Position numbers and translations under genes: made by a program. This document shows, piece by piece, positions 2,367-53,543 of a stretch of DNA of 64,000 nucleotides (position 1 is its first letter; each line of letters opens with the position of its first letter). Origin of the DNA: Candidatus Poribacteria bacterium (GTDB lineage: Bacteria > Poribacteria > WGA-4E > PCPOR2b); contig OZ244042.1 of NCBI GenBank assembly GCA_965215015.1, positions 3,328,001-3,392,000 of the forward strand, written 5' to 3'. Under the pieces are notes generated by a model that saw only the letters and a program-made list of their open reading frames with translations, did not search any database and had not been told where the DNA came from.

Positions 2367-4841
2367 ATGGCAGACTATCAACCGCTCGAGTTGTCACCGT
2401 TATGCAATGCAGGACTTGAAGTTTTAGGCGCAAACGCGGATGCCCCCATCGGCAAACAAGCCTTCCGTGGTCTTCCATTTTTGGTAAACGCGGACGGTTC
2501 AAGATGTTTCATCGCACTTAATGACGCTTCGGGAAATGTCACGATTCCCATCAATCAATCCGCACGCCGCATTATCATCGCACACCGTTTGCTAGAATCT
2601 GATCTGATGGAGGGCGGAGCACTAGGGGAGCCTGTCGCAGATTATGTGTTTCGTCTAGCAGAGGGTGCCGAAATCCGTATTCCCATCCGGGAGCGATTTG
2701 AAATTGCGGATCTCTCCGGTAGCGGTGCGCCATTCCACGCGCTCCCCGATCAGAACGACCATCTGATGCCGCGTCATGAGGGGAAATGGGAGGAGATGGG
2801 GCGACGTCAGACCGAAGTGTCGCGCGGCACAGCCCGTGGCTACTACCTATGGGCGTGGGAGAATCCGCATCCAGACCGCGAGGTCGAATCGCTGGAGATT
2901 ATTCCGAGTGGACCGCATTTTATTATCGCGGGTGTCACGCTTTCGCACGTTGACGAGCATCCTTTCGTCCGACAGGGGAAACGCGAAGCGCGCTTAATCC
3001 TGACCAATCCTGAAGACGCAGAAAAGCCGTTTGACCTTGACGTGGAAGTCGATCGGGGGATAGCGACTTATGTCCATCCGTTGCCTGAAGCGTCATCCGC
3101 CGATTTTGTCAACGATGATTTCGCCGGTTGGGGAGAAGCGCAGAATCCCAAGTCGAGCCCATCCTATGTCGAGGTTGCTGCGGTTCCATCAGCAACGGTG
3201 ACAGTAAAGCAGGGCAAGGAAAAGGTAGGGGAGGTCAAGTGGGGTGATGTTGAGGAGAAAAAGGTGGTCGAAACCCCACGAATGCGTGTGGAACTTTTGG
3301 ACCGTGGACGGAATTGGGTTCACGTCACTATCCTTGATGATGATACGGGCAAACCAGTCCCTTGCCGCGTCCATTTCCGATCACCGGAAGGCGTCCCCTA
3401 TCAACCATACGGACATCACAATCAGGTTAATTCTAATCTCGGCAGTTGGCATATTGACATTGGCGGTGATCTTCGACTCGGACAAATCACCTACGCATAC
3501 ATTGACGGTCGTTGTCAGGGATGGCTACCGCGCGGCGAGGTTATCGTGGATATCGCGCGGGGATTTGAGTATGAACCGCTACGGACACGAGTGAATATCG
3601 AACCGGGTCAACGCGAACTAACTTTGCGCCTCAAACGATGGGTTCACATGAACGCGGATGGCTGGTATAGCGGCGATTCCCACGTGCACTTCCTCTCGAC
3701 ACAGGGCAGTCATACGGAGTCCCAAGGCGAAGACCTCAACATCGTGAACCTGCTCCCATCGCAGTGGGGCAACCTGTTCACAAACACGGAGGACTTCACA
3801 GGCAAGCCGAGTATCTCGCAAGATGGTAATAACATCGTTTATGTCGGTCAGGAGAATCGGCAGCACTTTCTGGGGCATCTCATCCTCTGGGGTCTCAAGG
3901 AGCCGGTGATGCCGTGGTGTAGTGATGGTCCCGGTGAATCTGAGCTCGGTGGAACGCTGGAAATCACGATGAGTGATTGGGCAGATCAGTGTCATGCCCA
4001 GGGCGGCTCGGTCATTATCCCGCACCTCCCGAACCCGAATGGTGAACCTGCGGCACTGATTGCCACCGGTCGCGTGGACGGTGTGGAGATGCTACGTCAT
4101 GCACCGTTCAATCACCTTGAATACTATCGCTACCTCAACTGCGGTTACCGCTTGCCGCTGGTTGGCGGAACGGATAAGATGAGTAGCGATGTACCTGTCG
4201 GTATTTACCGGACCTACGCCTATCTACCTGACCAAGAGTTCACCTACGACAATTGGTGCAAAAGTGTATCCCAGGGACGAACATTCCACAGCGGTGGCCC
4301 TATGATTAACCTCACCGTGGATGGACATAATATCGGTGATACGATGCAGTTGTCAGGGGCTGGTACGGTGGAGGTCGAAGCGTGGGCGGAGAGCATCTTC
4401 CCGATTCATACGCTCGAAATCGTTCAAGCTGGACGTGTCGTTGCCTCGACAGAAGATAGCAAAGGTACACGTCGGTTGGAGTTGAAGGCACAAGTGAAAG
4501 TGGAGGGACACACTTGGATTGCTGCTCGATGTGGTGCTCCTAATTACACCAGCATCCCTCATCACGATGGCTGGGGACGAGGAATATTTGCTCACACTTC
4601 GCCGATTTATATCGCCTGCGGTGGAGAGTGGTGGATGTTTGATAAGGATGCCGCCCAGTATATGCTCACGCTCATTGATGGCAACCTGACCTACATCCGT
4701 CAAACCGCCGCTCGACACGCGCCCGGCACGGCAACCCATCATCACGGTGAAGATAATCACCTTACCTATCTAGAACGTCCCTTCGTCGAAGCCCGCGCAG
4801 CCATTCACCGGCGGATGCATCAATTGGGGATAGCACATTAG
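2367..4841 (+). CDS. CehA/McbA-family (PHP-like) metallohydrolase
   Basis: WYSGDSHVH, GHL, IPH and GGTD motifs; RBS agaaaggag favours ATG 2367. Confidence 0.7.
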   Translation: MADYQPLELSPLCNAGLEVLGANADAPIGKQAFRGLPFLVNADGSRCFIALNDASGNVTIPINQSARRIIIAHRLLESDLMEGGALGEPVADYVFRLAEGAEIRIPIRERFEIADLSGSGAPFHALPDQNDHLMPRHEGKWEEMGRRQTEVSRGTARGYYLWAWENPHPDREVESLEIIPSGPHFIIAGVTLSHVDEHPFVRQGKREARLILTNPEDAEKPFDLDVEVDRGIATYVHPLPEASSADFVNDDFAGWGEAQNPKSSPSYVEVAAVPSATVTVKQGKEKVGEVKWGDVEEKKVVETPRMRVELLDRGRNWVHVTILDDDTGKPVPCRVHFRSPEGVPYQPYGHHNQVNSNLGSWHIDIGGDLRLGQITYAYIDGRCQGWLPRGEVIVDIARGFEYEPLRTRVNIEPGQRELTLRLKRWVHMNADGWYSGDSHVHFLSTQGSHTESQGEDLNIVNLLPSQWGNLFTNTEDFTGKPSISQDGNNIVYVGQENRQHFLGHLILWGLKEPVMPWCSDGPGESELGGTLEITMSDWADQCHAQGGSVIIPHLPNPNGEPAALIATGRVDGVEMLRHAPFNHLEYYRYLNCGYRLPLVGGTDKMSSDVPVGIYRTYAYLPDQEFTYDNWCKSVSQGRTFHSGGPMINLTVDGHNIGDTMQLSGAGTVEVEAWAESIFPIHTLEIVQAGRVVASTEDSKGTRRLELKAQVKVEGHTWIAARCGAPNYTSIPHHDGWGRGIFAHTSPIYIACGGEWWMFDKDAAQYMLTLIDGNLTYIRQTAARHAPGTATHHHGEDNHLTYLERPFVEARAAIHRRMHQLGIAH

Positions 4842-4871
4842 TGAAACGTGAAAGGTAATGCGTAATACCTC

Positions 4872-5187
4872 CCCGTGAAAAAATCGCCATTGTGGAGGGT
4901 ACGGAAAATGTCTGAATTAGATAATGCGGCTATTTGAATCCGTGTGCTGAATCAGGATTTTCAGGCTGGATGGATAAATAGGATAGAAACGTCAGCATCT
5001 AAGAATCCTGAGAATCGTAGAATCCGGTGAATCCGGATTCTGACAAGTTACACACCCTCCTCCAAAATCATCGCCGCATTCTGTCTGAATCAGGATTTAC
5101 TGGATTTTAGGATTAACAGGATTGACTCTATCCATTGCCATTCACTATCCTGAAAATCCTTCCATCTTGAGAATCCAGATTCTGACA
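4872..5187 (+). repeat. Copy of MTase 3' tail plus two palindromic elements (tgtctgaatcaggatt...aatccagattctgaca)
   Basis: 4872-4916 resembles gene end 8799-8843; palindromes at ~4946-5045 and 5082-5187. Confidence 0.9.
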
Positions 5188-5296
5188 ATTTATACTATTG
5201 ATGCATCTGTAAGCCGATAGCCCTCGCTTAATCCTTGACATGCCTTGATTTAGCTCAAAAGATAGCAGCAAGGATTAAACTCAGGAAAGCCTAAAG

Positions 5297-8200
5297 ATGA
5301 ACGACCCACAACACAAATCTACCATCACAAATGCCCTAAACCGCTTCACCGATGGGGCCCTCGCTGAAAATGCACGAAACCTACTCAACACACTCGGCTA
5401 TCAGAGCGAAAGGACACTAGCCCTTGAATCAAATACCGCCGACGCCTTTATTGCCGCGTATGATCCGCAAGGGCAACTGAATAGCGGTAGGGCACTGACA
5501 GCAGAGTGGACCTCCATTGACCTGCTTTTCCAACTCACAGGCGATGACCTGACGCCCACGGATACAACCCGATGGATTTTCAATCCCAGCCAGACGCAGG
5601 TGGATAACACCATCATCGAATCCTACCTTTTCTTCGCAATCCGCTTGGAAGGCAGCGGTTACAACCGCACCCAACTGTCGCAAATCACCCGCGAAATCAA
5701 CAAGTTGTTCTCGATACCCGCGATGCTGCTCTTTCAACACGGCAGCACGCTTACGCTGTCGATTATCGATCGCCGTTTGGGGGTACGCGATCCATCCCGC
5801 GATGTCCTTGAAAAAGTAACCCTTATCAAGGACATTAATTTCAAAGATCCCTACCGCGCCCACATCGATATCCTATTCGATCTCGCCCTCGAACCGTTGA
5901 ACCAAACGCACGGTGTCCGCAACTTTGTCGAGCTCCATCGCGCTTGGGAAAAGACACTCGACACCGAAGCACTCAACAAGAAATTCTACCGAGAGTTGTT
6001 CGACTGGTTTGAATGGGCGGTTGATGAAGGGGGGTTCCCCACAAACGAAAAGCGTACCTTGAAACCGGAGGAGCACGTCATCCGCTTAATCACGCGACTG
6101 CTGTTCGTCTGGTTTATCAAAGAGAAGGGATTGGTCGCCGATGAACTGTTCAACGAGACGCACGTCGCCCCATTGCTGAAAGACTATGACCGCGACACCG
6201 GCGATTCCTACTACCGGGCGGTGCTGCAGAATCTGTTTTTCGCCACACTGAACACGGAGATAGAGAAGCGTGGGTTTAGCAAAGGGGGCAACCCGGCTCA
6301 TCGCAATTTCTCACGGTATCGCTACAAAGACCAGATAGCCGATCCCGACAAGCTGCTGGGGCTGTTCGCCCAAACCCCATTTATCAACGGTGGCTTATTC
6401 GATTGCCTCGACAGCGAGGAGGCGACACGGGATGGCGGCTACCGGGTGGATTGTTTCTCCGATGTGCATTACAGTCAATTAAGTATTCCTAACCGTCTCT
6501 TCTTCGATGATGCTTACGGCCTGATTCCCCTGCTGAAACGGTACAAGTTTACCGTTGAGGAAAACACACCGATAGAGCAGGAGGTCGCATTGGATCCGGA
6601 GCTACTTGGCAAGGTGTTTGAAAACCTGCTCGCTGCGTATAATCCTGAAACTGGCACAACGGCACGAAAGCAGACCGGTTCCTATTACACCCCCCGCGCC
6701 ATTGTGGACTACATGGTAGAGGAGGCGTTAGTAGCCACGCTTGGAGGACGGGTGGCCCCGACGGACGGTGATTCAAAGTTTTGGGACGAGCGGTTGCGCT
6801 ATCTGTTCGATTATGCGAAAGCGTTCGATGATGCGAGTGAATGGTTCGATAGCCGTGAATCGGACTTGGTAGTGCGGGCAATTTCAGAACTGAAGATACT
6901 TGACCCCGCCGTCGGTTCCGGCGCGTTTCCGATGGGGGTGCTACACAAACTGACGCTTGCCCTACGACGGTTGGACCCGGATAACACCCGATGGGAGACA
7001 TTGCAAAAGGAACGTGCCGCCCAGCGAGCGGCGGATGCGTTTGATACGGCAGATGACCACATACGCCGTGAAGCACTCCTCGAAATCAACGAAACTTTCA
7101 AACGGTACCGCGATTCGGATTTCGGACGGAAGTTGTATCTGATTCAAAACAGCATCTTCGGTGTCGATATTCAGTCAGTGGCGTGCCAAATCGCTAAGCT
7201 CCGCTTTTTCATCTCCCTTGCCATTGAGCAGGAGCCGGATAGGGCCGCAGCTAACTTTGGGATTAAGCCGTTGCCCAATCTGGAGACACGGTTTGTTGCG
7301 GCAAACACGCTCATCGGTCTCGAAGGCGAACGAACCCTGACAAGCCCCAGGGCCAAAGCATTGGAAGGGAAATTGAGTGAGAACCGCGAGCGGCATTTCC
7401 ACGCAACGACACGCTCCCAGAAACTGGCGTGTAAGCGAGCTGACAAGGAATTGCGGCGAGAATTGGCGACGGAATTACGCCATATCGGGATGCCCACCGA
7501 TGATGCGGAAAAAATTGCCCATTGGGACCCCTACGACCAGAACGCCTCTGCTGATTTCTTTGATCCAGAGTGGATGTTTGGGGTCAGAACTGGTTTTGAT
7601 ATTACAATTGGAAATCCACCCTATGTCAGATCAGAGGCGCGGGGACAACGAGCGTTGCGTCAGCAAATAGAAAATAGCAATCAGTATGAAACCCTTTGGG
7701 AGAAATGGGATTTGTATATTCCGTTCATTGAACGCAGCTATAAACTGCTCAAGCCGGCGGGTTTCACAACACTCATCGTCTCAGATGCCTATTGTCACTC
7801 GAAATATGCCCAGAAATCCCAAAACTGGTTTTTGAAAAATAGTCGCATCCTGCAACTTGACTTCTTTGGTAAGATTAAAATCTTCGATGCAGGGGTTCAT
7901 AACGTTACTTATCTGTTTCAAAAAGCAGATGGTAGTTATCAAAAGCCGGAGCGTCGTGTTCATGATCCCGAATTTGGTGTGGTCAATTTATTGCCAACTA
8001 ACGAACAGCGTGAATTAACCTATCGGGTCTTTTTTCCTGAAGATACAAACTGTCAACAGTTTTCAGTGTCGACGCTTGACCTATCAGAAATTTGTTACAT
8101 TAGTTATGGACTGAGGCCAAGTAGCAAGACACAGGATAAAAATAAATTTGTAACCTCTGATGTGGTTTCAGATAAAAAAGATCGACTTCATAGCAAGCCC

Positions 8201-8842
8201 TTTGTCGAAGGAAAGCATTTAGATCTGTGGCTTCCGAGAACAAACCTTTGGATTGAGTGGAATACAAATCGCGCACCTACAAAATTTTACAGTCCAACAT
8301 TCCCAGAAATGTATACAGTGGATGAAAAGATCTTAACTCAACGAAGTCCTGGGCCGGATCCAAAAGTTTGTTATGATAATCAGCATCTTGTTTTCACGCC
8401 CAGCAGTGTTGGATTAATTTTTTGGCATAATTTATCCGGTGTCCGCAATAGATCTATTCAAAAGCAGGCACGCTATAGCGACGAAGTGCGTCACCCAAAT
8501 TTGCCACAGCGGGAAGAACTTGAAGAGACAAGTCGTCGTTTTGCCGTGAAATTCCTGCTTGGTGTGATGAATTCGACTGCCGCCCATAATTTCCTGAAGG
8601 CAAATCGTCGTAGCAATATCCACTTGTACCCTGATGATTGGAAAAAGTTACCTATTCCCGATGTGCCACTTGAGCAACAAGCACCAATTGTTGAACTGGT
8701 CAATCAGATCCTCGACGCTAAACGCCCCGACCCAAACGCCGATGTATCCGAACTTGAAAATGAGATTGATCAGATAGTATATTTGTTATACGGTCTGACC
8801 CGTGAAGAAATCGCTATTGTGGAGTGTGCTGAAAATGTCTGA
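5297..8842 (+). CDS. Eco57I-like/type IIG-like N6-adenine DNA methyltransferase with C-terminal specificity region (paralog A, orphan)
   Basis: GSYYTP, motif I ILDPAVGSGAF, motif IV GNPPY (gamma order), tail LYGLTREEIAIVE. Confidence 0.9.
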   Translation: MNDPQHKSTITNALNRFTDGALAENARNLLNTLGYQSERTLALESNTADAFIAAYDPQGQLNSGRALTAEWTSIDLLFQLTGDDLTPTDTTRWIFNPSQTQVDNTIIESYLFFAIRLEGSGYNRTQLSQITREINKLFSIPAMLLFQHGSTLTLSIIDRRLGVRDPSRDVLEKVTLIKDINFKDPYRAHIDILFDLALEPLNQTHGVRNFVELHRAWEKTLDTEALNKKFYRELFDWFEWAVDEGGFPTNEKRTLKPEEHVIRLITRLLFVWFIKEKGLVADELFNETHVAPLLKDYDRDTGDSYYRAVLQNLFFATLNTEIEKRGFSKGGNPAHRNFSRYRYKDQIADPDKLLGLFAQTPFINGGLFDCLDSEEATRDGGYRVDCFSDVHYSQLSIPNRLFFDDAYGLIPLLKRYKFTVEENTPIEQEVALDPELLGKVFENLLAAYNPETGTTARKQTGSYYTPRAIVDYMVEEALVATLGGRVAPTDGDSKFWDERLRYLFDYAKAFDDASEWFDSRESDLVVRAISELKILDPAVGSGAFPMGVLHKLTLALRRLDPDNTRWETLQKERAAQRAADAFDTADDHIRREALLEINETFKRYRDSDFGRKLYLIQNSIFGVDIQSVACQIAKLRFFISLAIEQEPDRAAANFGIKPLPNLETRFVAANTLIGLEGERTLTSPRAKALEGKLSENRERHFHATTRSQKLACKRADKELRRELATELRHIGMPTDDAEKIAHWDPYDQNASADFFDPEWMFGVRTGFDITIGNPPYVRSEARGQRALRQQIENSNQYETLWEKWDLYIPFIERSYKLLKPAGFTTLIVSDAYCHSKYAQKSQNWFLKNSRILQLDFFGKIKIFDAGVHNVTYLFQKADGSYQKPERRVHDPEFGVVNLLPTNEQRELTYRVFFPEDTNCQQFSVSTLDLSEICYISYGLRPSSKTQDKNKFVTSDVVSDKKDRLHSKPFVEGKHLDLWLPRTNLWIEWNTNRAPTKFYSPTFPEMYTVDEKILTQRSPGPDPKVCYDNQHLVFTPSSVGLIFWHNLSGVRNRSIQKQARYSDEVRHPNLPQREELEETSRRFAVKFLLGVMNSTAAHNFLKANRRSNIHLYPDDWKKLPIPDVPLEQQAPIVELVNQILDAKRPDPNADVSELENEIDQIVYLLYGLTREEIAIVECAENV

Positions 8843-10292
8843 ATCAGGATTTTCAGGATGGAAGGATTTTCAGGATAAGTATCACCATCGACGGATTTTT
8901 TTTGCCTCGGTAACAACCCGAATTCGGATAGTATACTCATTATACAATTTAACCCCTGAAGAAATTGCTATTGTGGAGGGTGCGGCAAATGGCTGAATTA
9001 GATAAGGTGGCTATTTGAATCCGTGTGCTGAATTAGGGTTTCCAGGCTGGATGGATAAACAGGATAGGGCAGCATCTAAAAATCCTGAGAATCATAGAAT
9101 CAGGTGAATCCAGATTCTGACCATTTATAGGGTCTGCCTCCTGAAGACATCGGTATTGTGGCGGGTGCGGAAAATGTCTGAATCAGGGTTTCCAGGCTGG
9201 ATGGATAAACAGGATAGGGCAGCATCTAAAAATCCTGAGAATCATAGAATCCGGGTTCTGACCATTTATAGGGTCTGCCCTGTGAAGACATCGCGATTGT
9301 GGAGGGAAATGTCTGAATCAGGATTTTCAGGGTGGATGGATAAACAGGCTAGAAACGGCAGCATCTAAAAATCCTGAGAATCGTAGAATCTTGTGAATCC
9401 AGATTCTGACAATTGATACGGTGTCACTCCTGAAGAAATCGGTATTGTGGAGGGCGCGGATTTTTTGAATCTGCGTTAACCTTGAATCTGCGTTAATCTG
9501 CGATTCTGACGCTGCGGGAAATTAAGATTGTGAATGAGACACTAATTGTCTGAATCAAGATTTTCAGGATGGAAGGATAAACAGGATAAGTATCACCATA
9601 GACGGATTTTTTTGCCTCCGTAACACCCCGAATTCGGATAGTATAGTCATTATACAATTTAACCCCTGCAGACATCGCTATTGTGGAGGGTGCGGCAAAT
9701 GGCTGAATTAGGATTTTCAGGATGGAAGGATAAACAGACTAGAAACGGCAGCATCTAAAAATCCTGAGAATCATAGAATCTTGTGAATCCAGATTCTGAC
9801 AATTTATAGGGTCTGCCTCCTGCAGACATCGGTATTGTGGCGGGTGCGGAAAATGCCTGAATCAGGATTTCCAGGCTGGAAGGATAAACAGTATAGAAAC
9901 GGCAGCATCTAAAAATCCTGAGAATCATAGAATCTTGTGAATCCAGATTCTGACAATTGTATACGGTCTGCCTCCTGAAGAAATCGCGATTGTGGAGGGA
10001 AATGTCTGAATCAGGATTTCCAGGATGGATGGATAGACAGTATAGAAACGGCAGCCTCTAAAAATCCTGAGAATCGTAGAATCTTGTGAATCCAGATTCT
10101 GACAATTGATACGGTGTCACTCCTGAAGAAATCGGTATTGTGGAGGGTGCGGCAAATGTCTGGATCAGATAAGGTGGCTATTTGAATCCGTGTGCTGAAT
10201 CAGGCTTTCAGGATGGAGGGATAGACAGTATAGAAACGGCAGCACCTAAGAATCCTGAGAATCATAGAATCTTGTGAATCCAGATTCTGACA
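8787..10292 (+). repeat. Tandem array of degenerate units, each = MTase C-terminal coding tail + ~100-bp imperfect palindrome
   Basis: Tail copies near 8928, 9126, 9267, 9416, (9511), 9639, 9804, 9960, 10109; each followed by tgtctgaatcaggatt.. with, in most, ..aatccagattctgaca. Confidence 0.92.
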
Positions 10293-10335
10293 AGAGACAT
10301 ACCAACAGAGTATAAAAATAATGGAGGTTTCGTCC

Positions 10336-11157
10336 ATGACCCAATCGGCATCAAGCAGTTTCGATAAACCGGAGAATTTTAGTTTAACTGAGGGCCAGAT
10401 TACGCAGTTCAAGCTCAACGGCTTCCTCGTGGTCGAAGAGGTCCTATCTCCGGAAGAGGTGGAAATCCTCTCTGCCCATACCGACCTAATAGCGGCCGGT
10501 AAGGCGGAAAATATTCCGGAAACGAGCATTCAACTTGAAGCGGCTTTCCGCGAGGGCTCGAAGCCTGTTACGAATCAGGTCTTATCGGTCCGCAAGCTAT
10601 ACAACCTAGCTGTCTACGACGAGGTGATGTGGACGCATGTCTGTAACCCCAAAATTGTGAACATTATAGCGGCACTATTGGGAACCGATGATATCAAGAT
10701 GTACGGAGATCAGCTATTCATGAAAGCACCGGAGGGAGTCGGCACAGCGCAGCGTTGGCACCAAGACTCTGCCTCATGGCGGGACATCTTCCCGAAAGAT
10801 TTGGTTACAGCATGGACAGCTATTGACCACGCAACGATGGATAACGGGTGCCTGAATTTTGTCCCCGGAACCCACCGCTGGGGCATGATGCGTGGCGAAC
10901 AGTTGGCACCGTTTCTGAAAGACTTAGGAACTGACCAATGGCCGATTATCCCTGTGCCGTTGAGATCGGGCAGCATTAGCTTCCACCACAGTCTCACGCT
11001 GCATCAAAGCAACGCTAACAAATCCAATACACGTCGTCGTGGCTACGCGGTACACTACATGCGCGCGACCTCCCGCCGGGATGAATCGGTGACTGATGCG
11101 CCGAAGATGCCTCCCTTCAAGCAGGTGCGCGGCCGTTCATGGCGGGGGCGCGTGTGA
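10336..11157 (+). CDS. Phytanoyl-CoA dioxygenase (PhyH) family Fe/2OG oxygenase
   Basis: WHQD (HxD)...H triad, NGCLxFVPGTH; ggagg RBS before ATG 10336. Confidence 0.85.
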   Translation: MTQSASSSFDKPENFSLTEGQITQFKLNGFLVVEEVLSPEEVEILSAHTDLIAAGKAENIPETSIQLEAAFREGSKPVTNQVLSVRKLYNLAVYDEVMWTHVCNPKIVNIIAALLGTDDIKMYGDQLFMKAPEGVGTAQRWHQDSASWRDIFPKDLVTAWTAIDHATMDNGCLNFVPGTHRWGMMRGEQLAPFLKDLGTDQWPIIPVPLRSGSISFHHSLTLHQSNANKSNTRRRGYAVHYMRATSRRDESVTDAPKMPPFKQVRGRSWRGRV

Positions 11158-45898: not shown

Positions 45899-45952
45899 AA
45901 CGGTTTGTCGTAGAGCGATTGACCGTCCGTCAATTTTGCAAAAGGAAATCAC

Positions 45953-48900
45953 GTGAACAAAGAAACTGTTAAGTCTGTCTTAATGGCAATGCCTACCGGC
46001 GATTTTTTAGAAAAGTCAAAAGACCTCTTGGCAACCTTGGGGTACCACAGCGAACGGACTCTCGAACTTTCGGGAACTGTGGATGACTTCATTCAAGAAT
46101 TTGAAGCACTGAACCCACACACTAAAACAGAACGGGAATTCCGCAAAAACGCTGAATCCGTGGAACTTGTGTTCCAGTTTACAAAAGACGAAATCGCCGA
46201 TGACCTGCAGCAGACGCTTTTTAAATCGGCTTCCTTCGACAGGGCAAATACGGACAGTTTCATTTTCTGTGCAGTCGAGTTAAAAGATAACAACTACTCC
46301 CGGACCAAATACGCTGAGTTTACACGGGAAATCAACAAACGGTTGAATACACCGACTGTAGGGTTGTTTCGCGTTGCCAATCGTCTCACTGTGGGTTTTA
46401 CCGACCGCCGTCCACACAAAACTGATGAGGAGCGTGATGTGTTGGGGCAGGTCACGCTGATTAAGGACATCCGCCTAAACAATCCACATCGCGCCCATCT
46501 GGACCTCCTCTCCGATCTCTCACTGGAAGAATGTGCAGCGTGGATCGACACCCATAACGAACCGAAAAACTTCGATGGGCTACTGGCAGCATGGCTCGCC
46601 AAACTGGACACCGAAGCCCTCAACAAGCAGTTCTACCGGCAGTTGTTCGACTGGTTTGAATGGGCGGTCGCTGAAGCGAAGTTCCCCACAAACGAAAAAA
46701 AGATACTCAACCCACAGGAACACGTTATCCGTTTAATTACGCGCCTGCTCTTTATCTGGTTTCTAAAGGAAAAAGGCCTGGTCGCCGATGAACTGTTCAA
46801 TCAAACACAGATTCAAGACCTGTTGACAGAGACTGATTTTGATAACGGCAATTCCTACTATCGCGTCGTGCTGCAAAACCTCTTTTTCGCCACGCTAAAC
46901 ACCGAGATAGACAAACGAGGGTTTAGCACGGGGACAAACACCAAACATCGAGATTTTTCATGCTATCGCTACGAAGCTGAAATGCGTGATTCAGATGCGC
47001 TGCTGGCACTGTTCGTGCAAACGCCGTTTATCAACGGCGGCCTATTTGATTGCCTGGACAGTGAGGAGGCAACTGGCTATGGCGGTTATCGTATTGATTG
47101 CTTTTCCGATGTCCACTACAAGAAGCTGCACATTCCCAACCGTCTCTTCTTTGACGAACAACGCGGTCTGTTTCCCTTGCTCAACCACTATAAGTTTACT
47201 GTCGAGGAAAACACACCCATAGAACAAGAGGTCGCCTTAGACCCCGAGCTACTCGGTAAGGTGTTTGAAAACCTGCTTGCAGCCTATAACCCAGAAACCG
47301 GCGTAACAGCGCGCAGGCAGACCGGTTCCTACTACACCCCGCGCCCGATTGTGGACTACATGGTAGAAGAGGTGTTAGTCGCCACGTTATCTCAGAAATG
47401 CAGCCCAACCGAAGGCAATGCGGAGTTTTGGGAGGAGAGGCTGCGCTATCTGTTCAATTACGCGCTACAATTTGACGCTGCTAACGAATGGTTTGATGAC
47501 GAGGAAACAGACGGGGTTATGCGGGCAATCTCCGAACTCAAGATACTTGATCCGGCAGTCGGTTCCGGTGCGTTTCCGATGGGTATGTTGCACAAGCTGA
47601 CGCTCGCACTCCGTCGGCTTGACCCGGACAACACGCGATGGGAAACATTGCAAAAGGGACTTGCCATAGAGAAGGCGAAAAGAGCATTTGATACAAAAGG
47701 CCAACAAGAACGCGATGCCGCACTTCAGGAAATCAGTTCCACTTTTGAACGGTATAGGGATTCAGACTTCGGGCGGAAGTTATACCTGATTCAGAGCAGC
47801 ATCTTCGGCGTGGATATTCAACCTGTGGCTTGCCAGATTGCCAAGCTCCGTTTTTTTATTTCGCTTGCCATCGAGCAGGAAACGAACAGGGCCCTGGAAA
47901 ACTTTGGCATCAAGCCGTTGCCGAATTTGGAGACACGTTTTATCGCGGCGAATACGCTAATAGGCCTCAAAGGAGAACAACGACTGACAAGCAAAATGGC
48001 ACAGGACTTAGAGCGTGAATTGCTCGATAACCGCGAGCGACATTTTCATGCAACCACACGTCAGCAAAAACTTGCGTGTAAGAAGGCTGACAAAAGGTTG
48101 CGCGTCGAATTAGCAACAGAGCTAAAGGAAATCGGCATGCCCGCCGAGGACGCGGAAAAACTTGCCCATTGGGACCTTTATGACCAGAACGCTAGTGCCA
48201 ATTTTTTTGACCCAGAATGGATGTTAGGCATCAGGGACGGGTTTGATGTGGTGATTGGGAATCCGCCATATATTAAGGAATATACATTTAAGCACGCATT
48301 CGATGGGCTTCGAGAGTCTCCTTACTATCAGGGTAAAATGGATATTTGGTATATGTTCGTCTGTAAGGGATTGGATATATCAAAAAATAGTGGAGGTATG
48401 GTCACATTCATTGCTCAGAATAATTGGGTTACCAGTTCTGGTGCTTCAAAGATGAGAAATAAAGTTATTAAGGACGCACAGGTTTTGAGCTTCATAGATT
48501 TTGGTAGCTTCAAGATCTTTGAATCTGGCATACAAACGATGATAATGATTTTCAGAAAAAACACGGCCTCTGACAGCTACTCGTTTGATTACAGGCGACT
48601 GCATGGACCTAACCTTAACATCAACGATGTTATATTGCTTCTGAATAAAGATAAAAATAATAAAGCAGAATACTTAACACCTACGATTAAAAGAAGTGAA
48701 TATACAGGTAGAACTTTGACATTTAGCGATCCTGAAGTTGAACTGATTCTTGAGAAGATTTCATTAAAGCGTAATTTTCATCTGGATCCCAACAAGGAAG
48801 TTGCTCAAGGAATAGTTTATCCTCAAGATCGTATAAATAAAGTGAGTCAAAGCATTTTGAATAGTAACTTTAAAGTAGGAGGTGGAATTTTCGCTCTAAG

Positions 48901-49579
48901 CCAAAAAGAGAAAGACCAAATACCATTTACAAAAAAGGAATTGAATTTAATAAAGCCCGCCTATACAACGAAAGAATTACACCGTTATTATGGAAATCCT
49001 GTAAACCAAGAGTGGGTTATCTATACGGATTCTAGCTTTAAAGACAAGAAAAAGATTGAGAATTACCCAAACATAAAAACACATCTGGATCAATTTCGGA
49101 AGGTTATCACATCTGACAACAAACCTTATGGTCTACACAGAGCCAGAAAGGCATATTTTTTTCAGGGAGAGAAGATCCTATCCGTAAGAAAATGTGCAAG
49201 ACCCACATTTACTTATGTCGATTTTGAGAGTTATGTTTCAGCAACTTTTTATGTTATTAAAACGGAAAGAACGAATCAAAAGTACCTAACTGGGCTTCTA
49301 AATTCGAGACTTATCGCCCTTTGGTTAAAGCATAGAGGGAAAATGCAGGGGACAAATTATCAAATAGACAAACAGCCCTTATTAGCAATACCTCTGTTTT
49401 CACCTGCATTGGAACAGCAAACCTTGGTTGAAATTTTAGTTAATCAGATTCTTGATGCCAAACGCACAGACCTAGCCGCAGATGTTATCGCCCTTGAGAG
49501 TAAGATTGATCATTTGGTATATTCGTTATACAACTTAACTCCTGAAGAAGTTGCGATTGTGGAGGCAGCAGAGGGGTAA
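45953..49579 (+). CDS. Eco57I-like N6-adenine MTase with TaqI-C-like specificity region (paralog B)
   Basis: DPAVGSGAF, GNPPY, YLTGLLNS, tail YSLYNLTPEEVAIVE. Confidence 0.9.
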   Translation: MNKETVKSVLMAMPTGDFLEKSKDLLATLGYHSERTLELSGTVDDFIQEFEALNPHTKTEREFRKNAESVELVFQFTKDEIADDLQQTLFKSASFDRANTDSFIFCAVELKDNNYSRTKYAEFTREINKRLNTPTVGLFRVANRLTVGFTDRRPHKTDEERDVLGQVTLIKDIRLNNPHRAHLDLLSDLSLEECAAWIDTHNEPKNFDGLLAAWLAKLDTEALNKQFYRQLFDWFEWAVAEAKFPTNEKKILNPQEHVIRLITRLLFIWFLKEKGLVADELFNQTQIQDLLTETDFDNGNSYYRVVLQNLFFATLNTEIDKRGFSTGTNTKHRDFSCYRYEAEMRDSDALLALFVQTPFINGGLFDCLDSEEATGYGGYRIDCFSDVHYKKLHIPNRLFFDEQRGLFPLLNHYKFTVEENTPIEQEVALDPELLGKVFENLLAAYNPETGVTARRQTGSYYTPRPIVDYMVEEVLVATLSQKCSPTEGNAEFWEERLRYLFNYALQFDAANEWFDDEETDGVMRAISELKILDPAVGSGAFPMGMLHKLTLALRRLDPDNTRWETLQKGLAIEKAKRAFDTKGQQERDAALQEISSTFERYRDSDFGRKLYLIQSSIFGVDIQPVACQIAKLRFFISLAIEQETNRALENFGIKPLPNLETRFIAANTLIGLKGEQRLTSKMAQDLERELLDNRERHFHATTRQQKLACKKADKRLRVELATELKEIGMPAEDAEKLAHWDLYDQNASANFFDPEWMLGIRDGFDVVIGNPPYIKEYTFKHAFDGLRESPYYQGKMDIWYMFVCKGLDISKNSGGMVTFIAQNNWVTSSGASKMRNKVIKDAQVLSFIDFGSFKIFESGIQTMIMIFRKNTASDSYSFDYRRLHGPNLNINDVILLLNKDKNNKAEYLTPTIKRSEYTGRTLTFSDPEVELILEKISLKRNFHLDPNKEVAQGIVYPQDRINKVSQSILNSNFKVGGGIFALSQKEKDQIPFTKKELNLIKPAYTTKELHRYYGNPVNQEWVIYTDSSFKDKKKIENYPNIKTHLDQFRKVITSDNKPYGLHRARKAYFFQGEKILSVRKCARPTFTYVDFESYVSATFYVIKTERTNQKYLTGLLNSRLIALWLKHRGKMQGTNYQIDKQPLLAIPLFSPALEQQTLVEILVNQILDAKRTDLAADVIALESKIDHLVYSLYNLTPEEVAIVEAAEG

Positions 49580-49628
49580 ATTATCCGAATCTCGGATTGC
49601 ACAAATTGCACGGATCTTTAGAATCCGT

Positions 49629-49784
49629 GCTCACATCACGCGATCGCATAAAAAGACCCAAACCCAAAACTTGGGGCGAGGCGGCACCCGCGGCTTCAAA
49701 CTGCCGGTGGCCTCTAAAACGCCTAGAGACTCCGGTGACTTTGAATTAGTAACGTGGTTGATTATCACAACCCTTCAGTCATGA
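49629..49784 (+). pseudogene. Duplicated 3' fragment of the helicase gene
   Basis: Encodes AHITRSHKK...ELVTWLIITTLQS*, same as 45743-45898. Confidence 0.85.
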
Positions 49785-49838
49785 AACGGTTTGTCGTAGG
49801 GCGATTGACAGTCCGTCAATTTTGCAAAAGGACATCAT

Positions 49839-52800
49839 GTGAACAAAGAAACTGTTAAGTCTGTCTTAATGGCAATGCCTACCGGCGATTTTTTAGAAAA
49901 GTCAAAAGACCTCTTGGCAACCTTGGGGTACCACAGCGAACGGACTCTCGAACTTTCAGGAACTGTGGATGACTTCATTCAAGAATTTGAAGCACTGAAC
50001 CCAAACACTAAAACAGAACGGGAATTCCGCAAAAACGCCGAATCCGTGGAACTTGTGTTCCAGTTTACAAAAGACGAAATCGCCGATGACCTGCAGCAGA
50101 CGCTTTTTAAATCGGTTTCCTTCGACAGGGCAAATACGGACAGTTTCATTTTCTGTGCAGTCGAGTTAAAAGATAACAACTACTCCCGGACCAAATACGC
50201 TGAGTTTACACGGGAAATCAACAAACGGTTGAATACACCGACTGTAGTGTTGTTTCGCGTTGCCAATCGTCTCACTGTGGGTTTTACCGACCGCCGTCCA
50301 CACAAAACTGATGAGGAGCGTGATGTGTTGGGGCAGGTCACGCTGATTAAGGACATCCGCCTAAACAATCCACATCGCGCCCATCTGGACCTCCTCTCCG
50401 ATCTCTCACTGGAAGAATGTGCAGCGTGGATCGACACCCATAACGAACCGAAAAACTTCGACGGGCTGCTGGCAGCATGGCTCGCTAAACTGGACACCGA
50501 ATCCCTCAACAAGCAGTTCTACCGACAGTTGTTCGACTGGTTTGAATGGGCGGTCGCTGAAGCGAAGTTCCCCACAAATGAAAAAAAGACACTCAACCCG
50601 CAGGAACACGTTATCCGCTTAATTACGCGCCTGCTCTTTATCTGGTTTCTAAAGGAAAAAGGCCTGGTTGCCGATGAACTGTTCAATCAAACACAGATTC
50701 AAGACCTGTTGACAGAGACTGACTTTGATAATGGCAATTCCTACTATCGCGTCGTGCTGCAAAACCTCTTTTTCGCTACGCTAAACACCGAGATAGACAA
50801 GCGAGGGTTTAGCACGGGGACAAACACCAAACATCGAGATTTTTCATGCTATCGCTACGAAGCAGAAATGCGCGATTCAGATGCGCTGCTGGCACTGTTC
50901 GTGCAAACGCCGTTTATCAACGGCGGCCTATTTGATTGCCTGGACAGTGAGGAGGCAACTGGCTATGGCGGTTATCGTATTGATTGCTTTTCCGATGTCC
51001 ACTACAAGAGGCTGCACATTCCTAACTGTCTCTTCTTTGACGAACAACGGGGGCTGTTTCCCTTGTTCAACTACTATAAGTTTACTGTCGAGGAAAACAC
51101 ACCCATAGAACAAGAGGTCGCCTTAGACCCCGAACTACTCGGTAAGGTGTTTGAAAACCTGCTTGCAGCCTATAACCCGGAAACCGGCGTAACAGCGCGC
51201 AAACAGACCGGTTCCTACTACACCCCACGCCCGATTGTGGACTACATGGTGGAAGAGGCGTTAGTCGCCACGTTATCCCAAAAATGCAGCCCAACCGATG
51301 GCAATGCGGAGTTTTGGGAGGAGCGGTTGCGCTATCTGCTCAATTACGCGCTACAATTTGACGATGCTAACGAATGGTTTGATGACGAGGAAACAGACGG
51401 GGTTATGCGGGCAATTTCCGAACTCAAGATACTTGATCCGGCAGTCGGTTCCGGTGCGTTTCCGATGGGTATGTTGCACAAGCTGACGCTCGCACTCCGT
51501 CGGCTTGACCCAGACAACACGCGATGGGAAACATTGCAAAAGGGACTTGCCATAGAGAAGGCGAAAAGAGCAGTTGACACAAAGGGCCACCAACAAGAAC
51601 ACGATGCCGCACTTCAGGAAATCAGTTCCACTTTTGAACGGTATAGGGATTCAGACTTCGGGCGGAAGTTATACCTGATTCAGAACAGCATCTTTGGCGT
51701 AGATATTCAACCTGTGGCTTGCCAGATTGCCAAGCTCCGTTTTTTTATTTCGCTTGCCATCGAGCAGGAAACGAACAGGGCCCTGGAAAACTTTGGCATC
51801 AAGCCGTTGCCGAATTTGGAGACCCGTTTTATCGCGGCGAATACGCTCATAGGCCTCAAAGGAGAACAACGACTGACAAGCAAGACAGCACAGGACTTAG
51901 AGCGTGAATTGCTCGATAACCGCGAGCGACATTTTCATGCAACCACGCGTCAGCAAAAACTTGCCTGTAAGAAAGATGACAAAAGGTTGCGCGTCGGATT
52001 AGCAACAGAGCTAAAGGAAATCGGCATGCCCGCCGAGGACGCGGAAAAACTTGCCCATTGGGACCTTTATGACCAGAACGCTAGTGCCAATTTTTTTGAC
52101 CCAGAATGGATGTTAGGCATCAGGGACGGGTTTGATGTGGTGATTGGGAATCCACCGTATTCCAAGGGCGAGAATTTGAACCTCACAGATCGTCAACAGT
52201 TGAGACAAAATTACGGCTGGTCTGGCGATTTATACGACTACTTTATCTTTAGAGGGTTTACTCTCGTCCGTGAAAAAGGAATCTTTTCGTACATCGCCAA
52301 TGATAGTTATGTTACCCTGCCCACCAAGCGCAGAATCAGAAACCTGTTTTTGCAAAACCGACTCCTTCATCTCGTCAAGGCACCGGCACATACCTTTGAA
52401 ACTTCTATTTATACGGCTATCTTTATACTGTTGAAATGCGGAGCAGACGGTTCACACACCTACATGACGGGCGAAATGAACTTTCCCGATTTCCAATATC
52501 ACGTAAGCGGCGCAGTTGAATACACAAAAATTCACAGGATGCTGGACAAGAAATTCCTATCGAATGCGGAGAATAGCTGGGTGTTGCAGCTCCTTGCACT
52601 TGAAAATATGGAAAAATTCTGTCGAGTTTTGGACACAGGTATTCATTCTGGAAATGTCAGAGCCAAAATTTTCTTCAAGGAAAACAACGGAAAAAGGCAT
52701 CGGCTATTGCAGGGGCGGCAGATTCAACGATTTGCCTTGAATTGGAATTCACCGGCAGCAAAATACCGGTTTTGCGATATTAACTATAAACCACTTCCAA

Positions 52801-53318
52801 TTCCCGGAATTGGGCGAGGAGGGAAACCAAGTAACCAAAACGAATATTGGCATTTTTGTGGTGATATTGAGAACCATCACCAACCTGAACGACTATTCAT
52901 ACGTCAGACTGACGATGATTTAATAGTCGCTTATCACAGCGAGGCAGAGTCAGGACGTTTTTACACAGATAACACGCTCCATACGATTCTTCCCAAATTT
53001 CAAAAAACTAAATTAAAGTATTTTTTGGCGTTGTTCAATAGCCGGTTGCTGAACTTTGTCTATCACTTTATTTCTCAGGAACAACGCAAAAGTCAAGCAC
53101 AAGTAAAAATTAGCGTTGTGAAAAAATTGCCGGTGGTTGTCCCTGCTGAGGATGAGCAACGTCGAGTTATTGCTTTGGTGGACAAAATCCTTGCGGCAAA
53201 AGCCGCCAACTTGGATGCGGATACCATTGAATTTGAAAAAGAAATTGACCATCTCGTATATTCCTTATATAACCTAACACTGGAAGATATTGCGGTTGTG
53301 GAGGCAGCAGAGGGGTAA
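49839..53318 (+). CDS. Eco57I-like N6-adenine MTase with a different specificity region (paralog C)
   Basis: Nearly identical to B up to GNPPY, unrelated afterwards, shared tail YSLYNLT..IAVVEAAEG. Confidence 0.9.
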   Translation: MNKETVKSVLMAMPTGDFLEKSKDLLATLGYHSERTLELSGTVDDFIQEFEALNPNTKTEREFRKNAESVELVFQFTKDEIADDLQQTLFKSVSFDRANTDSFIFCAVELKDNNYSRTKYAEFTREINKRLNTPTVVLFRVANRLTVGFTDRRPHKTDEERDVLGQVTLIKDIRLNNPHRAHLDLLSDLSLEECAAWIDTHNEPKNFDGLLAAWLAKLDTESLNKQFYRQLFDWFEWAVAEAKFPTNEKKTLNPQEHVIRLITRLLFIWFLKEKGLVADELFNQTQIQDLLTETDFDNGNSYYRVVLQNLFFATLNTEIDKRGFSTGTNTKHRDFSCYRYEAEMRDSDALLALFVQTPFINGGLFDCLDSEEATGYGGYRIDCFSDVHYKRLHIPNCLFFDEQRGLFPLFNYYKFTVEENTPIEQEVALDPELLGKVFENLLAAYNPETGVTARKQTGSYYTPRPIVDYMVEEALVATLSQKCSPTDGNAEFWEERLRYLLNYALQFDDANEWFDDEETDGVMRAISELKILDPAVGSGAFPMGMLHKLTLALRRLDPDNTRWETLQKGLAIEKAKRAVDTKGHQQEHDAALQEISSTFERYRDSDFGRKLYLIQNSIFGVDIQPVACQIAKLRFFISLAIEQETNRALENFGIKPLPNLETRFIAANTLIGLKGEQRLTSKTAQDLERELLDNRERHFHATTRQQKLACKKDDKRLRVGLATELKEIGMPAEDAEKLAHWDLYDQNASANFFDPEWMLGIRDGFDVVIGNPPYSKGENLNLTDRQQLRQNYGWSGDLYDYFIFRGFTLVREKGIFSYIANDSYVTLPTKRRIRNLFLQNRLLHLVKAPAHTFETSIYTAIFILLKCGADGSHTYMTGEMNFPDFQYHVSGAVEYTKIHRMLDKKFLSNAENSWVLQLLALENMEKFCRVLDTGIHSGNVRAKIFFKENNGKRHRLLQGRQIQRFALNWNSPAAKYRFCDINYKPLPIPGIGRGGKPSNQNEYWHFCGDIENHHQPERLFIRQTDDDLIVAYHSEAESGRFYTDNTLHTILPKFQKTKLKYFLALFNSRLLNFVYHFISQEQRKSQAQVKISVVKKLPVVVPAEDEQRRVIALVDKILAAKAANLDADTIEFEKEIDHLVYSLYNLTLEDIAVVEAAEG

Positions 53319-53543
53319 ATTATCCGAATCTCGGATTGCACAAATTGCACGGATCTTTAGAATCCGTGTCGTTGCTAAAAAGCTGGACTGCCTTCTCAAA
53401 AAGGGAGAGTATTTGTGTTTTTACGATGAAAATGAGTTAACGAATCTTTGGGGCAAGAGTCTCTATGATTACTTGCCATCGGTCTTTGACATACTCCCGT
53501 CTCTAAAGCGAATTGAACCATACCACCAAAAGGTATGAACCCG

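Follow-up and report, generated by a model that had tools for sequence, protein, structure and literature searches.

The tandem array that follows a DNA methylase gene in the window (the whole analyzed stretch of 64,000 nucleotides (nt), genome bases 3328001-3392000 of a Poribacteria sponge symbiont with a single-contig genome of 5.94 Mb) is probably a locally amplified mosaic cluster of a repeat resembling miniature inverted-repeat transposable elements (MITEs) and REPINs. We assign this reading a probability of roughly 0.6. The repeat, termed PAL1, would be selfish, would co-amplify the tail of the gene in front of it and would provide defence genes with portable homology. The first-pass annotation, made from the letters of the window, had instead suggested an integron-like system in which cassettes encoding target recognition domains (TRDs), or whole methylase genes, are gained and lost. 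In the following, "tail" denotes the 3' end of the methylase gene and its copies, "head" the first ~40 nt of PAL1, and "island" the region from about 4869 to 10292. It is organized as follows (window coordinates, all on the + strand):

4869..4943, +: degenerate methylase-tail fragment (core 4877-4897), followed by an incomplete PAL1 start with the "...TTTGAATCCGT" linker; the island starts here, the corresponding orf837-PhyH spacers of relatives ceasing to resemble the genome at about 4868
4944..5045, +: full PAL1 copy 5' of the methylase gene (nhmmer score 98)
5082..5188, +: second dyad repeat, from the same superfamily as PAL1, whose inverted ends are of the head type (nhmmer score 37.5; + strand head at 5082, - strand head at 5173)
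5185..5245, +: "end element", starting ACAATT(G)TATACTATTGATGC (blastn: 7 copies, each abutting a PAL1 array)
5297..8842, +: Type IIG-like N6-adenine methylase gene, paralog A, 1181 amino acids (Pfam Eco57I 101 bits; PADLOC REase_MTase_IIG 191 bits; alignment of 8 paralogs)
8787..8842, +: the gene's own tail, its stop TGA (8840-8842) within the PAL1 left end
8835..9024, +: half PAL1 (8835-8878), 122-nt variant module (8879-9000) whose YNL-type tail ends in ...EGAANG*, remainder of a linker
9025..9408, +: PAL1 (9025-9119), tail (9120-9173), truncated PAL1 (9174-9254), tail (9255-9308), PAL1 (9309-9408)
9409..9699, +: tail (9409 to ~9465), GAATCTGCG-rich variant piece with a degenerate tail (~9497-9545), half PAL1 (9546-9588), second YNL variant module (9589-9699)
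9700..10101, +: PAL1 (9700-9798), tail (9799-9853), PAL1 (9854-9952), tail (9953-10001), PAL1 (10002-10101)
10102..10292, +: tail plus linker of the 49-nt type (10102-10191), last PAL1 (10192-10292), which is the end of the island

Using a 21-nt core of the tail with up to 3 mismatches, 10 sites were found in the window, compared to 0 in each of 100 shuffled sequences. One is the gene's own (8804), seven lie in the array (8958, 9143, 9284, 9432, 9668, 9977 and 10125) and two outside of it, at 4877 upstream of the methylase gene and at 49544 in paralog C. A further array copy at about 9822 deviates from the core by more than 3 mismatches, and the degenerate copy at about 9497-9545 matches at 63%. 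The eight downstream copies and the single degenerate one counted in the first-pass annotation were therefore recovered. A profile search with nhmmer yielded 9 PAL1 matches in 8835-10289, seven of 81-100 nt and two left-arm halves (8835-8878 and 9546-9588), and the 26-nt left end of PAL1 occurred 7 times with 0 expected. The half and variant elements described earlier are thus present, and the YNL-type tails noted near 8928 and 9639 belong to the 122-nt variant module, of which 10 full copies were found genome-wide (6 in array H and 2 each in arrays A and G). The 3' codons of the methylase gene, GAA AAT GTC TGA, merge into the PAL1 start TGTCTGA, which places the TGA in the first repeat arm, as had been claimed. 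Tandem Repeats Finder reported a period of 154 nt with 88% matches, and also the 9-nt GGAT periodicity previously seen in the arms. Inside the variant module (window 8802-8996 and the other 9 copies) a homopolymer tract of seven or eight T was observed. With T8, as in the first module copy of the array, a 64-codon frame stays open from the methylase tail (+1 frame) through the half PAL1 into the YNL tail, and with T7 a stop is reached; the open frame is probably due to chance.

PAL1 is a dyad repeat of about 100 nt that runs from TG to CA and consists of two diverged, inverted head ends of ~42 nt. The ends read TGTCTGAATCAGGAT... and ...ATCCAGATTCTGACA, each with four GGAT motifs spaced 9 nt apart. 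The ~100-bp palindrome of the first-pass annotation is hence real as a repeat, but as a palindrome it is very imperfect: no inverted pair of at least 20 nt was found (0 pairs), and folding was no better than that of shuffled sequences for RNA (z -0.40) and barely better for DNA (z -1.42 and -1.70). An RNA motif was rejected on the grounds of this folding and of 0 Rfam matches at E values up to 1. A terminator or promoter role of the array was likewise rejected: no terminator-like site was found in 8842-10292, and counts of terminator and promoter sites equaled those in shuffles. A promoter-like site at 5167-5196 upstream of the methylase gene is of a kind no commoner there than in shuffles.

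Searching the whole genome with the PAL1 profile, 157 non-overlapping matches were obtained in 33 clusters, including 13 high-scoring arrays of 1-18 copies. A 25-nt head (up to 4 mismatches) gave 250 matches in 84 clusters. The head also starts the units of many other tandem arrays with unrelated remainders, and the five solo elements that were fully inspected (solo elements measure 179-453 bp) carry near-perfect inverted head ends of ~42 nt. By this anatomy PAL1 appears as a member of a MITE-like superfamily, of which it represents little more than the two ends. Members were also found 3' of housekeeping genes. The PAL1 arrays are mosaics of repeats and a few linkers (13/14, 17 and 49 nt, the ~55-nt tail, and a half PAL1 plus the 122-nt YNL-tail module), whose order differs from array to array; in all 13 arrays the stretches between repeats measure 13-146 nt. 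What could be taken for spacers are recurring linker motifs, in agreement with the earlier statement that the array is not CRISPR. Of the 13 arrays, 8 contain additional tail modules. Methylase paralogs precede six PAL1 arrays, namely five of these eight and the lone PAL1 after paralog E. The 18-copy array downstream of a small HD-domain gene carries tail modules as well, as do the site 3' of an HmaB/DUF1156 methylase gene and window 4869-4943. The end element (~48-88 nt) lies directly to the right of 7 of the 13 arrays, and the middle of the dyad repeat at 5082-5188 resembles, by eye, the reverse complement of the middle of PAL2, a sister repeat of PAL1. All 13 arrays are co-oriented with their upstream gene. 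A replication-strand bias was rejected: the GC skew is weak and array direction follows the upstream gene. With 110 matches, this genome has the highest PAL1 copy number, compared to 0-22 in its relatives. Another MITE-like element, with inverted ends CTCATTTACCCCCATTTTTTTT..., is nested beside or inside head elements at genome positions 5659700-5660000 and 1270600-1270780 and was also found after the arrays at 733468 and 4533958.

We considered whether the array might be a mis-assembled collapse or expansion of dispersed repeats, which is scarcely credible. The contigs of 4 short-read runs from 2 studies confirm both island edges and the TRD. Edge contigs from both studies cover 4300-4957 and 10264-10900 (from 10184 in X2), those at the right edge starting at 10184-10264 in the 4 runs and continuing into PhyH; the edge contigs of X1 and X2 show 8-18 differences from the window. 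Inside the array, contigs with 0 differences span the junctions at 9425-9551 and 9930-10086. Moreover, the units differ by 6-15% and include unique variant pieces, and twelve similar arrays occur elsewhere in the single-contig genome. In favor of an artefact, no contig bridges the whole array, and many joints are ambiguous at 90% likeness. Joints such as 9121>10149 and 9959>5191 can be attributed at that likeness to the other 12 arrays and are therefore uninformative on excision or circles.

For the origin of the array, 73 long PAL1 copies were compared, 72 of them in arrays with at least two aligned copies. The nearest relative was found in the same array for 51 of the 72, divergence was 9.6% within arrays versus 14.4% between arrays, and the tail variants are array-specific. 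Judged by these comparisons, local amplification and homogenization are indicated. The units thus cluster by array, as expected from simple local tandem amplification and contrary to the earlier proposal of repeated cassette gain and loss. Every PAL1 linker, including the 13-nt one, retains the ...GCGGRARA that precedes PAL1 in the gene, while other head families have other left flanks; we therefore infer that the PAL1 subfamily may have originated at the 3' end of the Type IIG methylase family. At the unit boundary, the right flank of PAL1, ...CTGACAATTGTATAC (as in the end element after 7 arrays), resembles the gene's ...CTTGTTATACGG. A first, microhomology-mediated duplication would have joined the PAL1 right flank (...ACAATTGTATAC) to ...CTTGTTATACGG about 50 nt before the stop, creating a "tail + PAL1" unit, which unequal crossing-over or replication slippage could then expand and homogenize. 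A crossover that pairs the gene's own tail with one of the copies behind it would restore an intact reading frame, and amplification would for this reason be harmless to the gene. As portable homology, the arrays would probably allow methylase genes to be excised, inserted or lost by ordinary recombination, and tail-bearing arrays would be left behind as footprints of lost genes.

The same tail/repeat junction in many paralogs and species could also be explained by repeated insertion, with the repeat or a methylase unit homing to the conserved tail and leaving one tail copy per event as a target duplication of ~50 nt. We regard this as unlikely. Two methylase families are affected, restriction-modification genes are known to insert with long target duplications, as described in the accessible part of PMC2853133, and a 44-nt promoter stretch is duplicated around an array and a small open reading frame (ORF) upstream of one HmaB gene (HmaB-b), all of which would fit. 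However, the arrays end in a repeat and not in a tail copy, the units are most like their neighbors, units without a tail but with 13- and 17-nt linkers stand in the same arrays, and the empty site of relatives lacks even a single copy of the repeats that flank the island. The 44-nt stretch (ACATGAACGCAAGATG...GAATTTAG; genome 5663440-5664930, locus L010) was observed on both sides of the upstream PAL1 array plus a small nucleotidyltransferase-like ORF in front of HmaB-b.

Compared to relatives, the array together with its gene is an addition to a conserved locus. Of 19 relatives in the genus with a kdtA match, 13 were compared, and all 13 have the order thiamine pyrophosphate enzyme - orf837 - PhyH - orf361 - kdtA, with an orf837-PhyH spacer of 45-460 nt. 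Neither a methylase gene nor a PAL element was found at this spacer in any of the 13. Because it is absent there, the region ~4869-10292 is, by this comparison, a species-specific insertion of 5.4 kb comprising tail fragment, PAL1, second dyad repeat, end element, methylase gene and array. Its left edge lies inside a tail copy, its right edge at the end of a PAL1. Similarly, at the array-HmaB-array locus PhyH_b stands directly beside an FAA-hydrolase gene in 12 of 19 relatives, the other 7 loci being too short to tell, and the array-flanked HmaB/DUF1156 gene HmaB-b is, on this evidence, also a species-specific insertion. The SHMT gene, which is followed by an array and paralog H in this genome, has no PAL element or methylase gene after it in any of 18 relatives. 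The HD-domain gene and serS, which flank the 18-copy, tail-bearing array in this genome, have no such array between them in 15 of 16 relatives. Tail-bearing arrays also exist at loci without a methylase gene, including the array at 730850. In total, an array-gene-array arrangement occurs at three loci, and at least two of these brackets are clear insertions. HmaB-b ends in ...TIK|IVEGAENV*, i.e. the Type IIG tail, whereas its paralog ends in ...EVLPPKQAPVP*. Its native C-terminus has been replaced by a tail fragment and the PAL1 stop, and the gene was not destroyed. Accordingly, the earlier idea of whole-gene cassettes and scars holds in part: array-bracketed insertions and tail arrays without methylase do exist, and they fit a more modest version of the idea, in which recombination is mediated by repeats.

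The array-gene-array loci, the insertion relative to 13 of 13 relatives and the common orientation of all arrays would equally be expected if PAL1 were the att-type site of a dedicated recombinase that moves TRD or whole-gene methylase cassettes, with the tails as duplicated crossover regions. This integron-like system is very improbable. No coding cassette stands between units in any array, and in particular no coding TRD was found in any of the 13, which contradicts the proposed shuffling of TRD cassettes. The left edge of the island lies inside the tail fragment and not at a repeat end, and the left borders of the arrays vary. The 73-copy PAL1 consensus contains no GTT and hence no GTTRRRY/RYYYAAC box, as read from the consensus and not from a motif search; this agrees with the earlier statement that attC boxes are lacking. 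The recombinase predicted to co-occur was not found either: none of the 61 ORFs located up to 5 kb from the 13 arrays encodes a tyrosine or serine recombinase or has a Phage_integrase domain. Elsewhere in the genome, 11 Phage_integrase matches were detected, and 4-5 of them have a head or PAL2 array just upstream. One tyrosine-recombinase subfamily (8 copies or fragments, 81-93% identical) has the head ~100-150 nt before its start, and one other recombinase gene has a PAL2 array upstream. This genome also combines the largest recombinase family (13 matches versus 0-6 in relatives) with the most PAL1, which would speak for the integron-like system. On the other hand, the recombinases score 63-76 bits against a XerA/integron-integrase model with a cutoff of 220, and 0 of 27 homologous recombinase loci in 15 relatives carry a head. 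For the latter reason the tyrosine recombinase was rejected as mobilizer of PAL, and the coincidences were treated as one inherited accident plus one case.

The recombinase subfamily itself is located at genome positions 2380293-2381288, 6765-7730, 2864651-2865331, 3848134-3848718, 2700822-2701400 and 2858003-2858485, plus fragments. It is expanded only in this genome, each unit begins ~23 nt before the head motif, and the gene at 2380293 is flanked by short direct repeats (GAAAGGATCTA..., CATGAATGTTG.AAGATCT); the subfamily may be an active element in its own right. Other candidate enzymes for the repeat were rejected as well. The two Y1_Tnp matches, representing REP-associated tyrosine transposases (RAYT/Y1), lie at 1.533 and 2.414 Mb, separated by 31 kb and 26 kb from the closest head clusters (at 1.50 and 2.388 Mb, respectively). 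Two full copies of IS1595 are near heads, but their shared homology (~1.1 kb) excludes the heads. No rve-type DDE integrase or transposase gene was found in the genome, and no transposase was found between inverted heads 0.7-6 kb apart in this genome, the only one searched for it, except for one IS1595 copy.

The repeats are not distributed evenly among genes. In a crude set of 3651 ORFs of at least 200 amino acids, a co-oriented head starting between -12 and +120 of the stop was found for 9 of 70 DNA-methylase ORFs versus 14 of 3581 others (~33-fold; Fisher p = 1.4e-10). Paralog F is not among these 23, owing to a variant PAL1 start. Of the 14 non-methylase genes, the twelve scanned are housekeeping genes, one encodes an SNF2/PLD defence helicase and one is located at 3650157. 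The proposed link of the palindrome with methylase tails therefore stands as an enrichment, but not as an exclusive one, the element being dispersed genome-wide and also behind housekeeping genes. Five of the eight paralogs (A, B, E, G and H) have their stop within or a few nt from a head, and in paralog F the TGA is inside the variant start TGGATGAATC. In relatives, a PAL-like element abuts the end of the Type IIG gene at 4 + 4 loci (two surveys with possible overlap) and, by eye, at one more (L053). PAL or head elements were present at 16 of 39 methylase-family loci titled Poribacteria versus 0 of 29 others. Among 68 related loci, however, two strict tail motifs were found in one (L078) and a 144-nt tail-like tandem in another (L053), and the Type IIG tail arrays are for this reason largely particular to this genome.

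A second methylase family shows the same association. PAL2 forms arrays at five loci, and its 40-42-nt linker corresponds to the 3'-terminal ~12 codons of a Type I hsdM gene. An 81-codon hsdM remnant, 79-100% identical to the C-terminus of ~522-aa HsdM proteins ending in ...ENVAMILEEGV, runs into the PAL2 array at 1.754 Mb, and an hsdS gene follows that array. Among the hsdM loci of relatives, a head begins 5-8 nt past the end of the match in 4 of 11, and extra HsdM-tail copies lie downstream in three. The PAL2 junction, GATTCAGACA|GAATG, shares microhomology with the gene's ATTTCTGAGAATG. In summary, the association of the repeats with methylase 3' ends is strong and recurs across species and in a second methylase family. 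At L030 (genome 4095009-4102004), head-type arrays also separate a DrmD-like SNF2/PLD helicase gene from a methylase gene of the Type IIG/DrmMI-like kind, and at L029 (genome 3403066-3406671) they lie behind another gene, which encodes a 1201-aa Eco57I/MmeI-type protein.

Such conserved adjacency to methylase stops, together with an orientation that always follows the upstream gene, might point to a functional array selected behind defence genes, in which the GGAT motifs, phased at 9 nt, eight in each repeat and arranged in dyad symmetry, would bind a regulator, insulator or nucleoid protein. The dyad symmetry resides in motifs rather than in base pairing, in line with the poor folding, and the ends of PAL1 and PAL2 match, with position 5 unpaired in both. 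Nevertheless, copy number and unit composition vary freely between arrays and species, the same heads terminate elements of typical MITE-like build whose interiors are unrelated, of the 23 genes that carry a head at the stop 14 do not encode DNA methylases, and no candidate binding protein was found. We consider a protein-binding function quite unlikely.

Several observations weigh against an amplified MITE/REPIN-like cluster as well. The microhomology junctions were read from present-day sequence. The MITE label for PAL1 is based on its anatomy, and no transposase or recombinase could be linked to it; at 8 solo copies no consistent target-site duplication and no paralogous empty site were found. 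Two separate captures of methylase tails, Type IIG and HsdM, exceed what random accident would lead one to expect, given that methylase ORFs make up only 70 of 3651. The paralogs are not independent, so that the enrichment p-value is overstated; ~4-5 independent gene lineages are behind it. Tail arrays at ancestrally empty sites need either movement of the composite unit or gain and subsequent loss of a methylase gene, neither of which was observed. We are also aware of the fact that each species was represented by one genome and that, with none of the contigs of the 4 short-read runs spanning the array, its unit number depends on the assembly.

Bacterial MITEs, such as Correia/NEMIS, RUP and the "integron mobilization units", are among the closest counterparts of the superfamily. 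They include pairs that flank and possibly mobilize genes. Like them, the PAL1 superfamily is small and non-coding, has ~42-nt inverted ends (TG...CA), exists in many dispersed intergenic copies with unrelated interiors and flanks inserted genes. Unlike them, PAL1 has no cognate transposase that was found and no consistent target duplication, its copies stand mostly in head-to-tail arrays, and its units include the coding tail of the neighboring gene. Some integrating elements bring along a duplicate of the 3' end of the gene they target, as prophage e14 does in icd. Here too the duplicated tail keeps the gene intact after insertion into its 3' end, but only a 100-nt repeat lies between tail copies, of which up to 9 follow in a row. 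As in attC arrays of integrons, PAL1 offers imperfect, ~100-nt dyad sites, co-oriented and arrayed at gene 3' ends; unlike attC arrays, it lacks an adjacent integrase or attI, ORFs between sites and R/L boxes, and folds poorly as a single strand. With REP/REPIN/bacterial interspersed mosaic element (BIME) clusters and pneumococcal BOX, as far as the accessible parts of PMC2817692, PMC3733652 and PMC3049150 describe them, the arrays share extragenic dyad repeats at gene 3' ends and mosaic clusters of a few alternating motifs in variable copy number. The repetitive extragenic palindromic (REP) sequence, however, is a 20-40-nt hairpin with a GTAG or CGTC head, whereas PAL1 has ~42-nt arms with phased GGAT that begin with TGTC; moreover, PAL1 units are unidirectional and not alternating, fold poorly, and have Y1 transposase genes no closer than the two distant ones mentioned above. 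The nearest framework is the combination of restriction-modification genes flanked by direct repeats with TRD exchange among Type IIG enzymes, as laid out in the accessible part of PMC2853133. In both cases a methylase gene without a mobility gene of its own is inserted between direct repeats of ~100 bp, and paralogs have a conserved body and swapped TRDs. In contrast to the insertions described in that part of the source, the flanking repeat does not stem from target duplication, PAL being absent from the empty sites of the 13 relatives; the repeat moreover belongs to a genome-wide family that has itself been amplified into tail-carrying arrays. A literature search found no description of such arrays and none of miniature inverted-repeat elements in Poribacteria, supplementary files not being covered.

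The PAL1 tail arrays are thus most probably an unusual form of ordinary MITE/REP-type repeat clusters and not an integron-like machine. It is notable that they carry gene tails, recur at the stops of two methylase families and bracket newly inserted defence genes. One could go further and regard the head/PAL repeats as a platform for the exchange of defence methylase cassettes in Poribacteria, i.e. an integron analogue without integrase, which we hold to be rather unlikely. If it were true, whole genes of the Type IIG, HmaB and HsdM families would be carried from locus to locus, and 3' parts of methylase genes exchanged, by homologous recombination or by a head-binding enzyme; the tail-bearing arrays would be the footprints of these moves. 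It has long been asked how restriction-modification genes that have no mobility gene of their own get around, and this genome offers many parallel cases: one repeat superfamily touches an hsdM remnant, 2 HmaB genes and the 8 Type IIG paralogs with their swapped TRDs. As in HmaB-b, repeat DNA can extend into and even rewrite the 3' end of a gene without destroying it. For annotation the arrays are a hazard, since tail copies can be mistaken for gene fragments or pseudogenes.

The methylase of paralog A carries NPPY at residues 773-776, a variable TRD in about the last 310-380 residues before the tail, and a conserved tail that ends in ...YGLTREEIAIVECAENV*; the PADLOC REase_MTase_IIG match, its best hit in the defence library, covers residues 259-558. 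With a predicted gamma-class N6-adenine methylase domain containing NPPY and a C-terminal TRD it conforms in this part to a Type IIG enzyme. The genome holds 8 paralogs of this ~1180-aa protein, and a TaqI_C domain is present in 5 of them. In their alignment, the first ~800 columns show 50-97% identity, the TRD ~20%, and the last ~45 residues are again conserved, which looks like textbook TRD exchange inside one genome. The other seven paralogs are located as follows:

window 45923..49579, +: paralog C, YNL-type tail, ends ...VEAAEG*; its stop is followed by a different ~50-nt, GAATCC/CGGAT-rich element, not PAL1
window 49809..53318, +: paralog D, same tail type as C and same ~50-nt element after the stop
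genome 377639-381040: paralog B
genome 3497058-3500684: paralog E
genome 3797369-3800935: paralog F
genome 3804632-3808249: paralog G
genome 5414668-5418174: paralog H

The ~50-nt element behind C and D (window 49580-49630 and 53319-53370) reads ATTATCCGAATCTCGGATTGCAC...TTAGAATCCGTG and terminates much like the "...TTTGAATCCGT" linker found in PAL1 arrays. In other Poribacteria (L045-L072 and others), many homologs of the methylase have a gene composed of 102-nt (34-aa, tetratricopeptide-like) repeats ~0.5-1 kb downstream, a pairing not seen at paralog A. The overall load of DNA-methylase genes is very high, with 28 N6_Mtase/Eco57I-type, 38 N6_N4_Mtase, 2 C5 and 2 HmaB/DUF1156 ORFs. Relatives of the methylase at ~50% identity were found in metagenome-assembled genomes (MAGs) of many phyla; by MAG titles, the homologs at L079-L103 and L111 belong to Alphaproteobacteria, Spirochaetia, Dehalococcoidia, Gemmatimonadota, Latescibacterota, Bryobacterales and others. 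Related runs include a sponge metagenome. The distribution among these MAGs suggests that the family spread horizontally among organisms sharing a habitat.

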